The notes under the pieces: generated by a model | Database searches by the model: none | Told to the model about the DNA's origin: nothing | Seen by the model: only the letters and a program-made list of their open reading frames with translations | Program-made: the position numbers and the translations under genes | Shown here: positions 1 to 4,347 of the stretch, piece after piece | Layout of the letters: every line of letters begins with the position of its first letter | Numbering within the stretch: the first letter of the stretch is position 1 | Source of the DNA: a virus | Lineage: Duplodnaviria > Heunggongvirae > Uroviricota > Caudoviricetes | Strand: one strand, 5' to 3' | Virus record (IMG/VR): IMGVR_UViG_2675903253_000013 | DNA length: 4,347 nucleotides

Positions 1-563
1 TACTCAACGTCAAACGCCCGAATTGAAGCCAAATCATCCAGACCGCTCAGCTCCTCTTTCATTTCACGCTGACGGCGATAAATCTCATCGTTGCGATCGA
101 CCTGCGCCTGCACCATTGCTGCCGCCAGTTCTTCCAGTTCCGGCATCGACAGTTTCACCTGCTGATTATCGGCATCGCTCCACGCCATATGTGTTTGTGC
201 TGTGACAGATTTTGCCAGCATGACTACCGGGGACAGGCGGCCCAGTGAGTTGGGGCCAGCATTCCAGATACGACCGTTCCATTCAAACGTGAACGGCTTC
301 GCCTCCTGTTCTGTGCGCCATGCTTCAATTTCCTGACGTCTGGCCTCTCTGGCCGCTTCCAGCATTTCTGGTGTCACAGTGAATGGGGCTATCTCACCCC
401 ATTTGCCACTTTGCAGTTCCTGCCAGATTCGCTGACCCGTCGGTGCGACATCATCAGCGGTGGCTGTGTAGGGGACTGCCTGGTCCCTGTCGTCAAAAAA
501 AACGTCACAGTCTACTGCGCCACTTTCGGTATAACGGGGATTAATGATTTTTTTAATTTCCAC
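1..563 (-). CDS. Tail fiber assembly protein / tail-fibre chaperone, second copy, different family from the first (DUF4376-like C-terminal motif); partial, 3' end runs off the window start
   Basis: Minus-strand frame is open from 563 to position 1 with no stop (about 187 codons, not in the ORF track because it lacks an ATG and a stop inside the window). Translation begins VEIKKIINPRYTESGAVDCDVFFDDRDQ and contains FTFEWNGRIWNAGPNSLGRL...WSDADNQQVKLSMPELEELAAAMVQAQVDRNDEIYRRQREMKEEL, which matches my recollection of the phage tail assembly chaperone family. It sits immediately downstream of a tail fibre gene (stop TGA 574..576). Proposed start GTG 561..563, preceded by GAGGAA (570..575) at 6-nt spacing; in-frame ATGs at 615..617 and 621..623 are alternatives but would overlap the upstream gene by about 45 nt. 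Confidence 0.6.
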   Translation of the reverse strand, partial: MEIKKIINPRYTESGAVDCDVFFDDRDQAVPYTATADDVAPTGQRIWQELQSGKWGEIAPFTVTPEMLEAAREARRQEIEAWRTEQEAKPFTFEWNGRIWNAGPNSLGRLSPVVMLAKSVTAQTHMAWSDADNQQVKLSMPELEELAAAMVQAQVDRNDEIYRRQREMKEELSGLDDLASIRAFDVE

Positions 564-569
564 GGTGCA

Positions 570-575
570 TTCCTC
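570..575 (-). promoter_or_regulatory. Shine-Dalgarno (GAGGAA) for the second chaperone gene
   Basis: Minus strand reads TGA GGAATGCACC GTG: GAGGAA lies 6 nt upstream of GTG 561..563 and overlaps the TGA stop of the upstream fibre gene, consistent with translational coupling. Confidence 0.4.
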
Positions 576-1763
576 ACGATGTGCGAATAAAAAGCCCGGG
601 CATTGCGCCAGAGACATGAGCATCCGGCACCCCGGACAGGGCGCTATATGACCCCGGTAATGAATGCTCTGAACATCCCGTAATGAAAAATTGTGGGGAT
701 GCTATATACGTTCCGGTGGGAGTACTGGGCACTGAAATCCCCACCGGTCCCAGTCGTGAGCCTCTGTATGACTGCCCCCTGACAAGTCTGATGACTTTAT
801 CACCGTCAGCTTCTCCCTGGTACGCAGCAATAATCAGCCCGCCAATGTCAGGGTCTCCCCATCTGTTGCAGACAGAGCTCGCCACGATTCTGTAAATAAT
901 ATCTTCTGTGGTTATATTTATTTTCACCCAGCCAGTCAGTCTGGATATGGGCCAGTAGCAGTAGCGGGTGTGATAAATGGGGCCGTTAATGCCGTAAAAA
1001 GTAAGGGATTTGGCTCTGTACCTCGGTTCTGTTGTCTCAGGGCGTGCATCAGTCCACCGGATGCTGAGCACCCCTTCAAACCGTGTGTCGGGTATGATGA
1101 TGTCGTAGGGGCCAGCAACGGAATATTCACCTGGCAGCGCATTCCTTACCCAGGCCAGGAAATCACTCTTAGTGTCAAAACGGATAACATCTTCAGGCAG
1201 AAAAGCACACCCAAAGCCGAATGCGCCGGGTATCGCCAGACGGCCTTTTGTCCGGTCGTAAATGTCGCTCTGTGCTTCCATCGTGGCCGCACTTTTCAGC
1301 CCCAGATTATCCCGGGACTTCTGTTGTGCCTTTTCGCCTGCTGCTGCGATTTCAGACAGATGGTTAGCCGTTTTCAGAGTGCCGGTCAGCGCAGCATCAA
1401 TGTCATTTTTGGCCTGCTCTGCTGCGCCTGCGCCACCATTTCCTCAAAGCGTTTGACGACATCCGGTTTCAGGTCGCCCTCATCAGGAGCAATCAGAAAG
1501 TCATTCAGCGTGCCGGGCTTTGAGTCGTCGTATACAGCAATGTCGCCAACACAGTACTCGTCGCGCCAGTCCCGTTTCAGATACACGCAATATTTTCCGA
1601 CCTGTGCCTCAAACGAATATTCACCGTTATTTCCGGTCACTACATCAGCCCTGGTACGCATCACCACTTCTGAGGTGTTTACACGGGATTTCAGAATAAT
1701 CTGGCATCCGGACATGGGGATGCCTGCGCCATCAGTCAGCGCACCTGATATCACTACAGACAT
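574..1763 (-). pseudogene. Side tail fiber protein (lambda Stf-type N-terminal domain plus distal receptor-binding part), disrupted by a 1-nt frameshift
   Basis: ORF 1386..1763 (125 aa, MSVVISGALTDGAGIPMSGCQIILKSR...DSKPGTLNDFL...VKRFEEMVAQAQ) resembles the N-terminal ~110 aa of lambda Stf (MAVKISGVLKDGTGKPVQNCTIQLKA...DSQPGTLNDFL...LELMVEEVA, from memory). It stops at TGA 1386..1388. A second minus-strand frame is open from 1443 down to the TGA at 574..576 and reads GAAEQAKNDIDAALTGTLKTANHLSEIAAAGEKAQQKSRDNLGLKSAATMEAQSDIY..., continuing into the 235-aa ORF 574..1281. Fibre-like sequence therefore continues across the break in a different frame. The two frames co-exist only in 1389..1443. 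Confidence 0.75.
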
Positions 1764-1786: not shown

Positions 1787-2332
1787 TCAGGAAGAACCTT
1801 CCGGAGAGACGGACCATTCAATGGCGTTATATGAGGATTTATCAGTGATGGTGCTGAAATCCATCGCCTGCAGCGATTTCGCGTAAATACGGTACGCTTT
1901 CAGTTTTTCCCGGTCTTCGTCGCTGATTAGCCCCAGCAGCAGGTCTTCTTCCCATTCCCCTGTCCGGGCACTGACCTGAGCCAGAAGGGCATCACGCTCA
2001 TCTTCCGCTTTGAGTCTGTAGTCAAAGACAAATTCATCATTGCGGTAAAACCAGTAACCCGGCGCGGTAATGCGGCGGTTGGCGGTAATATCAGGAACTT
2101 CAATAACACTGGCGTTACGGGGTTCAATGCCTGTCACATCCTTACCGACCCACACCACGCGCCCGTCTCCGGTGTAAACCATTTTTATGGTGTCACTGGC
2201 AAAGTTCTTCTGTTCTTCATACCAGTTTTTGCCGTCTTCCGAAAAAAGCCAGGTGACATCATACTGTTTTGTCAGCTGATATTATTCCGCGGTTTTCGGA
2301 TTACCTGCCGTAATATTTTTTAAATGCAACAT
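1787..2332 (-). pseudogene. Tail fiber assembly protein (P2 gpG / Mu U family) interrupted by an in-frame TAA at codon 17; the largest intact piece is ORF 1787..2182 (131 aa)
   Basis: Minus-strand ATG at 2330..2332 lies 2 nt after the fibre stop (TAA 2335..2337). It reads MLHLKNITAGNPKTAE, then TAA (2282..2284), then continues in the same frame YQLTKQYDVTWLFSEDGKNWYEEQKNFASDTIKMVYTGDGRVVWVGKDV...EVPDITANRR... to stop TGA 1787..1789. This is collinear with the recalled N-terminus of Mu U / P2 G (M.HLKNIKSxNPKTKEQYQLTKNFDV.WLWSEDGKNWYEE), where the stop position is Gln. CAA to TAA is a single transition. Confidence 0.8.
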
Positions 2333-2334
2333 TG

Positions 2335-3375
2335 TTAAATACTCGCTACGTTATACCAGGTGCCATTAATCAGTTTTTGCAGCGGTCGGTAATACACGCC
2401 GTTGACGTTATCCGCTGAGTTACGGCCGGTATCCGATATCGATATCCCTGACAGCCCGTGTCCCGAAGGTGAGCGAAATGTCCACGAAACGGTGTTACTG
2501 CCGGGGGGGTAATACATTTCATAACCATACCGCACATCCTGCACGCCACCATTTCGCTGCTGGTAACGGGCATCAAAGTTTCCGTAGTCTGACGGTGTTA
2601 CCCGTCCTGTAACGTTTACAGCTTTATTACTCTGGATACTGCCACTCTGAAAACGCAACACATGCACGCTATTGGCATAAACATCCAGCAGGCCATCACC
2701 ATTCTGTTTGAATCCGGTGTCATTATCACCAAGAACAATTGAATTCCCCCCCAGGGCGTTCTGAACGCCGATACCCAGCGCACCATTGACCTGCGAACCA
2801 CCGCCAACAGACACTTTATGCGACATGGATATTTCACCCGTCCGCAGATTAATGGTGAACGGGCGCAGGGGACCAATATCGCCATTTTCCCCCTGACCTT
2901 CACTGGTGGGAATAAGGTGCAGGCACTCTTCCGAACGACGAAAAATCAGGCCAAAAGCTTCGTTGAAAATCCTCAGCGCATTAACACCACGGATTTTCAG
3001 CTCTCCGGTCATGGTGTCGCCATCACGCTGAACGGCATTTTTTGCCTTATCCACCGTGGGTTTTAATCCGAGGTTTTCAACAGCCTCATCCCTGTCTTCC
3101 ACATCCGAAAGGTTATTTTTTATCAGCAATGCCTCTTCGTTAATTGCACCGCCCACCAGCAATAATATAGCCTTATATAGCTGGTCGTGTTCTTCTTTAT
3201 TCAGTTCTATCCCGGCCTTCTCAATGACACCACAGATTTCCTCCTGAATGGCATTCCACATGGCACTGTTCAGCCAGGTAGCAAGACGTCCTGTGCGAAG
3301 ATTTCCGTCAGTAAATCCGTTCTTACCCGGACCAAACTTATCTTTTACCGCAGTCAGCGTATCAATCCTGTGCAT
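2335..3375 (-). CDS. Tail fiber protein (Mu S / P2 gpH-like N-terminal attachment region; P2 gpH / lambda Stf-type C-terminal receptor-binding tip)
   Basis: Complete 350-aa ORF 2335..3387. N-terminus MHRIDTLTAVKDKFGPGKNGFTDGN matches the conserved start of Mu-type tail fibres. Middle and C-terminus (NAVQRDGDTMTGEL..., NALGGNSIVLGDNDTGFKQNGDGLLDVYANS..., ending RPLQKLINGTWYNVASI) match recalled P2 gpH / lambda Stf C-terminal motifs (ALGGSSIVLGDNDTGFKQNGDGILDVYANS... RPIQKYINGTWYNVAQV). I place the start at the third in-frame ATG (3373..3375) because GAGGA (3381..3385) sits 5 nt upstream and the product then begins MHRIDT; ATG 3385..3387 (MRMKMHRIDT) is the longest alternative and has no SD. 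Confidence 0.88.
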   Translation of the reverse strand: MHRIDTLTAVKDKFGPGKNGFTDGNLRTGRLATWLNSAMWNAIQEEICGVIEKAGIELNKEEHDQLYKAILLLVGGAINEEALLIKNNLSDVEDRDEAVENLGLKPTVDKAKNAVQRDGDTMTGELKIRGVNALRIFNEAFGLIFRRSEECLHLIPTSEGQGENGDIGPLRPFTINLRTGEISMSHKVSVGGGSQVNGALGIGVQNALGGNSIVLGDNDTGFKQNGDGLLDVYANSVHVLRFQSGSIQSNKAVNVTGRVTPSDYGNFDARYQQRNGGVQDVRYGYEMYYPPGSNTVSWTFRSPSGHGLSGISISDTGRNSADNVNGVYYRPLQKLINGTWYNVASI

Positions 3376-3952
3376 CTTCATCCTCATCTGGATAGGAAAA
3401 TAAAACGACGGTGTGTGACGGACATAATTTATTAATCACGCACTCCGCAACCGTATCCCCCCACGTCCGGATCGGTGTGTTGCAGGCGTCCGTGCATGTC
3501 TGCCACTGAGCACCGGCATCCATCGGCAACGTCACACGCCAGAAATAACGCCAGCGATCTCCCCATTCCGGATCGGGGCTTGCATCCAAGTGCTGGAACT
3601 GTTCGATCGTTACGCCGGTATATCCCAGCGCCTCAAGCTGATCCAGGAAGAACTGCTCATTTATGCCACCAGCCACATTGGCTTTTGCTTCAAGACGTTG
3701 CTGACGCTGGCGTAATGTCTGGGTTCCGACAGGGGAACAGGAATCAGGTAAACCATACAATTCTTCATAACGTTCAATCAGCTCTGTGGACTGACCGGGA
3801 TCGATTTCAATCACCAGTTCATCAGCCCGCTGGTGAACACGCACAAGCGATGGTGCCAGACCGTCAAGTACACCGTCGGTATCTGACCATGCAGGCCCCG
3901 GCGGCATCAGTCCGTACAGCAGCTTTGTATAATCATCCTGTAACGAATCCAT
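3362..3952 (-). CDS. Baseplate/tail protein of the P2 gpI / Mu gp48 family (DUF2313-like)
   Basis: 196-aa ORF. N-terminal LLYGLMPPGPAW...LDGLAPSL...HQRADEL...IDPGQSTELIERYEELYGLPD.C...TQTLRQRQQRLEAKANVAGGINEQFFLDQLEALGY fits the recalled gp48/gpI family pattern. Position is between a J-like baseplate gene and the tail fibre, as in P2 (J-I-H-G) and Mu (47-48-S-U). Strong SD AAGGAG at 3959..3964, 6 nt upstream of the ATG; start overlaps the upstream stop as TAATG. Confidence 0.8.
   Translation of the reverse strand: MDSLQDDYTKLLYGLMPPGPAWSDTDGVLDGLAPSLVRVHQRADELVIEIDPGQSTELIERYEELYGLPDSCSPVGTQTLRQRQQRLEAKANVAGGINEQFFLDQLEALGYTGVTIEQFQHLDASPDPEWGDRWRYFWRVTLPMDAGAQWQTCTDACNTPIRTWGDTVAECVINKLCPSHTVVLFSYPDEDEDAQD
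3381..3385 (-). promoter_or_regulatory. Shine-Dalgarno (GAGGA) for the tail fiber gene
   Basis: Minus strand reads CAG ATG AGG ATG AAG ATG CAC: GAGGA is 5 nt upstream of ATG 3373..3375 and lies inside the 3' end of the upstream gene. Confidence 0.4.
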
Positions 3953-4347
3953 TATTTACTCCTTGCCGGGTCATAAGCCTGCCAGGTGATCTCGCCGAGC
4001 ACCGGAAGCTCGGTCTCCCCCAGGTCAATATCCGATGAAGGGACGATTAACCGGTGGGCCACTTCACCAGCAGACAAACTGATGGCCTCACTGATTCTGG
4101 ACAGATACATACGCCCCTCTGGCACACCATCCCGTAACATCAGTGCATTCAGCTCTGCTTTTATTGCAGTCCTGATCTGCGGTGTGTCTTTCGATAATGC
4201 AATCGTCATCGGGATGACTTTTTCTGTGGCACCGAATACATACAATCCGCTTCCGGCAACAGGTGCCAGAGGAAGGATGTGGTCCCTGACTGCGTTAATC
4301 ACGCTTTCATCCGGGGCCGGGCGTTCCGGATCGTTTGTCGCCACCAT
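3952..4347 (-). CDS. Baseplate J-like protein (P2 gpJ / Mu gp47 family), C-terminal portion; 5' end lies beyond the window end
   Basis: Minus-strand frame is open from the window edge to stop TAA 3952..3954 (131 codons in window, ending ...LPVLGEITWQAYDPARSK). Assignment rests mainly on synteny, with the stop overlapping the start of the gpI/gp48-like gene, and on general resemblance to J-family C-termini. The ATG at the window edge is probably internal. Confidence 0.65.
   Translation of the reverse strand: MVATNDPERPAPDESVINAVRDHILPLAPVAGSGLYVFGATEKVIPMTIALSKDTPQIRTAIKAELNALMLRDGVPEGRMYLSRISEAISLSAGEVAHRLIVPSSDIDLGETELPVLGEITWQAYDPARSK
3959..3964 (-). promoter_or_regulatory. Shine-Dalgarno (AAGGAG) for the gpI/gp48-like gene
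   Basis: Minus strand reads CCCGGCAAGGAGTAAATAATG: AAGGAG, 6-nt spacer, ATG 3950..3952. Confidence 0.5.

Follow-up and report, generated by a model that had tools for sequence, protein, structure and literature searches.

The window, that is the whole stretch of 4,347 nucleotides analysed here, represents the right-hand end of a degenerate prophage in Shigella sonnei, phiP27-like and with a Mu-type baseplate, and is 100% identical to positions 165-4511 of contig CXFG01000026.1 from assembly GCA_001250555.1 (L004 in the following). All its recognisable genes are carried by the minus strand. They are listed below with the features of the second tail-fibre gene, for which L001, L002 and L003 indicate three intact Escherichia coli alleles and L009 a paralogous S. 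sonnei copy.

3952-4347, minus strand: C-terminal remnant of the baseplate J gene (PF04865 positions 172-255 of 255)
3362-3952, minus strand: baseplate wedge gene of the Mu gp48 / YmfQ type (PF10076, E = 2e-25)
2335-3387, minus strand: first tail-fibre gene, apparently intact (phrog_6859 positions 1-346 of 346, E = 6e-209)
1787-2332, minus strand: Caudo_TAP tail-fibre assembly gene of the first fibre (PF02413), inactivated by a nonsense codon
1386-1763, minus strand: second tail-fibre gene, 5' fragment (PF08400 positions 1-116 of 134, E = 2e-58)
1416-1427, minus strand: very probable deletion junction, with one 12-nt repeat copy left (alignment with L001, L002 and L003)
1406-1410, minus strand: A5 homopolymer (T5 on the plus strand), unchanged (A5 in L001, L002, L003 and L009)
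574-1415, minus strand: second tail-fibre gene, 3' part (phrog_2636 positions 277-567 of 568, E = 2e-123)
1-623, minus strand: intact DUF4376 gene of the tail-fibre assembly/chaperone type, following the second fibre (PF14301, E = 1.3e-16; phrog_1141, E = 1e-88)

Contig L004 and a second S. sonnei contig, L007, both end inside an IS1 element adjoining baseplate J about 100 bp past window position 4347. The terminal segments L004:1-62 and L007:1-83 are 100% identical to annotated IS1, which takes away at least the first half of baseplate J, so that the C-terminal part is all that is left. Each of the two contigs is from a different S. sonnei strain; between the IS1 end and the linker of the second tail-fibre gene (L004:1-3096 against L007:22-3117) their identity is 100%, falling to 96% past the linker. 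Protein comparison depicted the first tail-fibre gene as a mosaic, with an N-terminal part of about 225 residues of the L001 type and a distal part of the L002 type; its segment ...GSIQSNKAVNVTGRVTPSDYGNFDARYQQRNGG... agrees with L002, and L001 carries about 170 extra bp there. The Caudo_TAP gene is interrupted by a TAA at codon 17 (2282-2284), where the window reads GAA TAA TAT and L001 and L002 read GAA CAA TAT (Gln), and its ORF is thus called as 162 aa or 131 aa from a downstream start.

On the other side of the second fibre, the stop codon of the DUF4376 gene lies 1 base past the window end. The gene is called as 207 aa in L004 from a start at 623, overlapping the fibre 3' end by 50 nt, while a start at 563 would give 187 aa; since the PHROG match begins at residue 19 of the longer form, 563 is likely the true start. 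The tail-fibre module is followed on L004 by a gene for a 587-aa ipaH-type effector (LRR_TTSS and NEL domains, 4692-6455) and then by ybhB and bioA, B, F and C, which places the remnant on the bio side of the chromosome. Judging from this gene order, we take the position to be near the classical lambda attachment region. Two plus-strand ORFs were also considered: the 271-aa ORF at 970-1785, antisense to the fibre gene, had no family match of significance, its best Pfam E being 0.067, and is likely to be spurious, and the family search with the 64-aa ORF at 1262-1456 returned no significant match either.

The second tail-fibre gene is divided between two reading frames. Minus-strand translations of 1270-1470 showed an N-terminal frame that reads ...KPDVVKRFEEMVAQAQQSRPKMTLMLR, or more fully ...FEEMVAQAQQSRPKMTLMLR, up to the TGA at 1386-1388, and a distal frame that is closed by a TGA at 1444-1446 and open from 1443 (GNGGAGAAEQAKNDIDAALTG...SAATMEAQ...) to the stop at 574-576. 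The two frames are 1 nt apart and overlap only in 1389-1443, thus bearing out every coordinate of the original prediction as well as its arithmetic, according to which a single-base gain or a 2-nt loss restores one frame. The N-terminal ORF was assigned to PF08400 with 196.6 bits against a gathering cutoff of 26.6, in agreement with the earlier description of a lambda Stf-like N-terminal domain. Its residues 1-116 are authentic and are followed by nine out-of-frame residues (RPKMTLMLR, 1389-1415) and by the TGA. The authentic protein ends at Ser116 (codon 1416-1418), and the break does fall, as had been proposed, at the junction of the attachment domain with the rest of the fibre. The distal part has been shifted to the -1 frame with respect to the 5' fragment and consists of the rest of an Ala/Gln-rich shaft linker and of a distal domain, presumed to be receptor-binding; it gave no Pfam match over 574-1443. 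Gene callers report the two pieces as a 125-aa N-terminal ORF and a 235-aa ORF starting from an internal ATG at 1281.

The ORF at 1386-1763 and the frame at 574-1443 are, on the evidence of sequence comparison, two halves of one tail-fibre gene. A single family of 568 profile positions, phrog_2636, was matched collinearly by the N-terminal ORF (positions 1-117, E = 2e-67) and by the distal frame (positions 277-567, E = 2e-123), and the intact allele L001 matched the same profile with E = 2e-203. Both parts are 97-100% identical to consecutive stretches of single intact proteins. Together with the PF08400 match (E = 2e-58), these figures put the split well outside the reach of chance. Ten complete E. 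coli genomes carry a single CDS over the whole region, annotated as "prophage tail fiber N-terminal domain-containing protein", and the three alleles fetched from them encode 421 aa (L001), 422 aa (L002) and 470 aa (L003). These intact single-ORF homologues belong to enteroinvasive-type E. coli chromosomes, in which L001-L003 occupy the same position, and phage phiP27 has a further one of 490 aa. The distal part is 100% identical to the C-terminal part of P0116, an in-frame S. sonnei protein. When the 235-aa distal ORF was used as query, the module turned up in S. sonnei, S. flexneri, S. boydii, S. dysenteriae and E. coli O124, nearly always in fusion with PF08400; the matches lacking PF08400 were contig-end partials, truncated copies or proteins with another N-terminal part (P0137, P0146). 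The protein search with the 125-aa ORF returned mostly contig-end partials of 219 aa or less, which carry little information on natural lengths. The claim that a single gene is broken within 1389-1443 thus holds, the junction being located at 1416-1427.

Comparison with the intact alleles pointed to the nature of the lesion. DNA alignment and exact flank matching showed that the window is missing 79 bp that L001 and L002 have, and that it is 226 bp shorter than the longer L003 allele; the flanks of the gap are otherwise about 97-100% identical to L001 and L002. As 79 bp correspond to 26 codons plus 1 nt, the loss explains the change of frame. Among the direct repeats of the L001 linker, the longest, GCGCAGCAGA, occurs at 4374 and 4453, 79 bp apart, and the undeleted S. 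sonnei copy L009 (GCA_000268005.1) contains a perfect 12-nt repeat, GCGCAGCAGAGC, at 438 and 517, with the same 79-bp spacing. A single copy of GCGCAGCAGAGC is left in the window, at 1416-1427, and what is missing is one repeat copy and the 67-bp spacer. In silico removal of one repeat and the spacer from L009 yielded the junction of the window, GCGCAGGCGCAGCAGAGCAGGCCAAAAATGAC, and the only mismatches in 270 nt around the simulated junction were two upstream SNPs and the offset due to the additional A of L009. The endpoints of the deletion therefore lie within the repeat, one copy is kept and the length equals the repeat spacing, which is the textbook signature of slipped mispairing or of short-homology illegitimate recombination. 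The missing segment codes for 26 residues, AGAAAGNAQQTAQDVAAAAGYARAAE, and includes the sequence encoding positions 117-131 of the PF08400 profile, indicating that the long form is ancestral and the window form derived. The PF08400 match reaches positions 130-134 in the intact alleles, and the last 18 profile positions are lost from the window because of the deletion. Taken as a whole, the splitting of the second tail-fibre gene by a 79-bp deletion between 12-nt repeats is very probably the correct explanation of the locus.

On this basis, the history of the gene can be outlined. The ancestral gene would have been one ORF of about 420 codons, comprising the PF08400 baseplate-attachment domain, the Ala/Gln-rich linker and the distal domain. 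A single 79-bp deletion between the two copies of GCGCAGCAGAGC in the GC-rich linker would then have arisen by replication slippage or by another short-homology-dependent illegitimate recombination; intramolecular slippage, unequal exchange between sister chromosomes and exchange with a paralogue are indistinguishable here. Translation is predicted to leave the authentic frame after Ser116, to add nine wrong residues and to stop at 1386-1388. The distal 280 codons would be untranslatable, except from a fortuitous internal ATG without a ribosome-binding site. The 125-aa N-terminal fragment, which keeps the start codon and most of the fold, could still be made, while the function of the fibre has presumably been lost. 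The product of these events would be a pseudogene within a prophage remnant bearing other lesions, a remnant that appears to survive chiefly as a vehicle for the ipaH effector gene.

The linker is evidently liable to insertions and deletions and differs in length among the related copies. P0116, encoded on L007 by the S. sonnei copy adjoining sitABCD, shows an in-frame linker deletion of 141 bp, the S. flexneri protein P0117 an in-frame deletion of 12 aa (36 bp), and L003, P0123 and P0120 a linker insertion of 48 aa (144 bp). The paralogue L009 has the full linker, a 5' truncation at about codon 22 and an additional A (A4 to A5) within L009:600-620, equivalent to window positions 1331-1334. 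The window copy and L009, the two out-of-frame copies that we examined, were thus inactivated independently. The Ala/Gln linker, dense in short GC-rich direct repeats, might be regarded as an indel hot spot which repeatedly varies the length of the shaft and sometimes switches the fibre off, and the 125-aa fragment might still be expressed and act, for instance, as a baseplate-binding decoy against related superinfecting phages. The one observation behind both ideas is the indel diversity just described among the paralogues, and we consider this reading very unlikely.

The original prediction had also suggested that the break might mark a recombination joint, at which an N-terminal and a distal module of different origin had been joined out of frame. 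Part of this suggestion stands, as the motif ...FEEMVAQAQQS... is a module boundary in the tail-fibre family, at which exchange takes place: P0119 and P0123 have a different N-domain joined to the same distal part at this very motif. About 185 E. coli genomes and phiP27 have only the N-terminal 380 bp in common with the window gene, and a megablast search against phages matched only these 380 bp (phiP27, Rac-SA53 and an Actinobacillus phage record) and found the distal module in no phage record. It is also at this point that the complete identity of L004 and L007 is lost. As the cause of the frame change, however, a joint between modules is contradicted by the alleles L001, L002 and L009, in each of which both sides of the junction are contiguous with 97-100% identity; for one contiguous intact allele, the two flanks reach 98-100%. 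At the junction itself, the window departs from these alleles solely in lacking an internal 79 bp delimited by the 12-nt repeat; it contains no foreign sequence, and an out-of-frame joint is therefore very improbable. Besides the deletion, the linker may also mark the limit of a recent exchange, or of a gene conversion, involving paralogous prophage remnants; alternatively, one of the two contigs may have been mis-joined.

Since the deletion call rests on assemblies, the possibility that the 79-bp gap is an artefact was evaluated, either as a repeat collapse or as a chimera of the paralogues at the sit and ipaH/bio loci. S. sonnei contains at least three paralogous copies of this fibre gene, L004 and L007 are indistinguishable over 3096 bp and begin to differ precisely within the linker, and the NCBI assemblies with the junction appear, from their accession series, to be from one sequencing project. 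On the other hand, the junction 32-mer was retrieved from L004 and L008, which are two fetches of one contig, from L005, a second NCBI assembly, and from L010, a Logan contig for which another pipeline assembled the reads of run ERR025690 directly. The junction occurs in that Logan contig as well as in three NCBI contigs, from different samples. A 12-nt repeat is shorter than the k-mer sizes normally used by assemblers and too short to cause collapse, so that the junction sequence must exist in the reads. An assembly artefact is unlikely, and in our estimate highly so. A chimera between paralogues was likewise judged unlikely, the same junction having been obtained from a different assembly pipeline. 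An exact-match scan for the deletion junction in the genome_contigs collection gave 0 matches; this collection is believed to hold one genome per species, with Shigella under E. coli, and the result is uninformative.

The annotation of two CDSs of 125 aa and 235 aa by gene callers in several S. sonnei assemblies would agree with two real genes, one for a short attachment protein and one for a distal fibre protein beginning at MEAQSDIY, or with one protein produced by programmed frameshifting. Such readings are opposed by the single PHROG family spanning both parts and by the one-ORF homologues in E. coli, in other Shigella and in a functional phage. The exact 125-aa product was detected on 3 contigs only, under three S. 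sonnei accessions, and the only homologues that end at ...QQSRPK are identical copies of this allele; no gene family beginning at MEAQSDIY emerged when the distal ORF was used as query. The Met of MEAQ (ATG 1281) is internal in the single-ORF homologues and no Shine-Dalgarno-like sequence precedes it, while a scan of 1100-1900 detected no promoter-like or terminator-like site between the two ORFs. As for recoding, the homologues are single ORFs, Rfam returned nothing in the window at E up to 1, and the RNA fold at the junction was not different from shuffles (z = -0.97). The observations proposed for refuting the single broken gene thus failed to do so, and two genes or a programmed frameshift are extremely unlikely. 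A 9-nt inverted repeat, GCGCAGCAG ... CTGCTGCGC, was observed at 1385-1427 on the minus strand, flanking the A5 run and taking in the deletion repeat; this inverted repeat accounts for the main hairpin of the predicted fold, the stability of which did not differ significantly from that of the shuffles.

Finally, the site originally put forward for the lesion, slippage with loss of one base in the A5/T5 run at 1406-1410, has next to no probability: the run does lie within the 1389-1443 overlap, one added A does restore a frame, and the paralogue L009 has indeed slipped by +1A, though in another run, whereas the A5 is invariant in the alignment, being present in every intact allele containing the run (L001, L002, L003) and in L009; the protein repaired by one extra A, ...QQSRPKNDID... 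(...QQSRPKNDIDAALTG), lacks the 26 residues of the homologues and matches none of them; and the frame change is accounted for by the 79-bp deletion alone. The A5 run was accordingly rejected as the lesion, and the difference in length between broken and intact alleles expected for homopolymer slippage or for a phase-variable contingency locus was not observed.

Returning to the repeat-bounded deletion, the second tail-fibre gene is an ordinary pseudogene originating from a short-repeat-mediated loss, a known kind of gene decay. In these S. sonnei assemblies, one pseudogene should be annotated in place of the two "tail fiber protein" CDSs (125 aa and 235 aa), and the case teaches that intact alleles should be compared before a nearby homopolymer is blamed for a frame change; the comparison with orthologous loci, which had been recommended at the outset, was indeed what revealed the intact single CDS in L001, L002 and L003 and the 79 bp missing with respect to L001 and L002. 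The locus also provides a further example of the repeat-mediated decay of a prophage structural gene beside a retained ipaH virulence gene, and the 79-bp deletion could be a lineage marker within S. sonnei, although its significance beyond correct annotation is small. To our knowledge, the 79-bp allele itself has not been described.

A closely related arrangement is the L54-L57 module of phiP27, which has the same order of J, gp48-like gene, fibre, assembly gene, second fibre and second assembly-type gene and likewise lies at the right end of the prophage. The N-terminal 116 residues of its fibre protein L56 (NP_543108.1) correspond to the window with about 89% identity at the DNA level, and the domain order is the same, that is N-domain, Ala/Gln linker and distal domain. 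L56 differs in being intact, with 490 aa; its linker is longer and of another kind, its distal domain has diverged, and it runs ...FEEMVAQAQQSAEAAA... straight past the point at which the window changes frame. In a functional fibre and chaperone cassette, the fibre ORF and the assembly or chaperone gene after it are both intact, whereas in the window the fibre that precedes the intact DUF4376 gene is broken.

Among named cases, the nearest precedent is the stf gene of laboratory lambda, which like the window gene is a PF08400-type side tail-fibre gene split by a frameshift, with the same presumed consequence for the fibre. The lesion in lambda stf, reportedly described by Hendrix and Duda in 1992, is said to alter one base of a phage that is otherwise viable; the window gene has instead lost 79 bp between repeats and belongs to a defective prophage remnant with other lesions. 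Here too two ORFs stand in place of intact alleles of 421-490 aa, but no single-nucleotide indel of the laboratory lambda type was found. [quoted passage not shown]

The decay of Shigella chromosomes offers a further parallel. Pseudogenisation and IS-mediated decay around the chromosomal ipaH genes have been described in general terms (PMC8072062), and the window likewise shows an ipaH gene beside prophage tail genes, an IS1 flank and several inactivating lesions. As regards the type of event, the deletion does not differ in kind from those of the lacI system, the natural prophage gene of the window taking the place of the reporter. In E. coli lacI, spontaneous deletions between short direct repeats were reportedly attributed to slipped mispairing by Albertini et al. 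in 1982.
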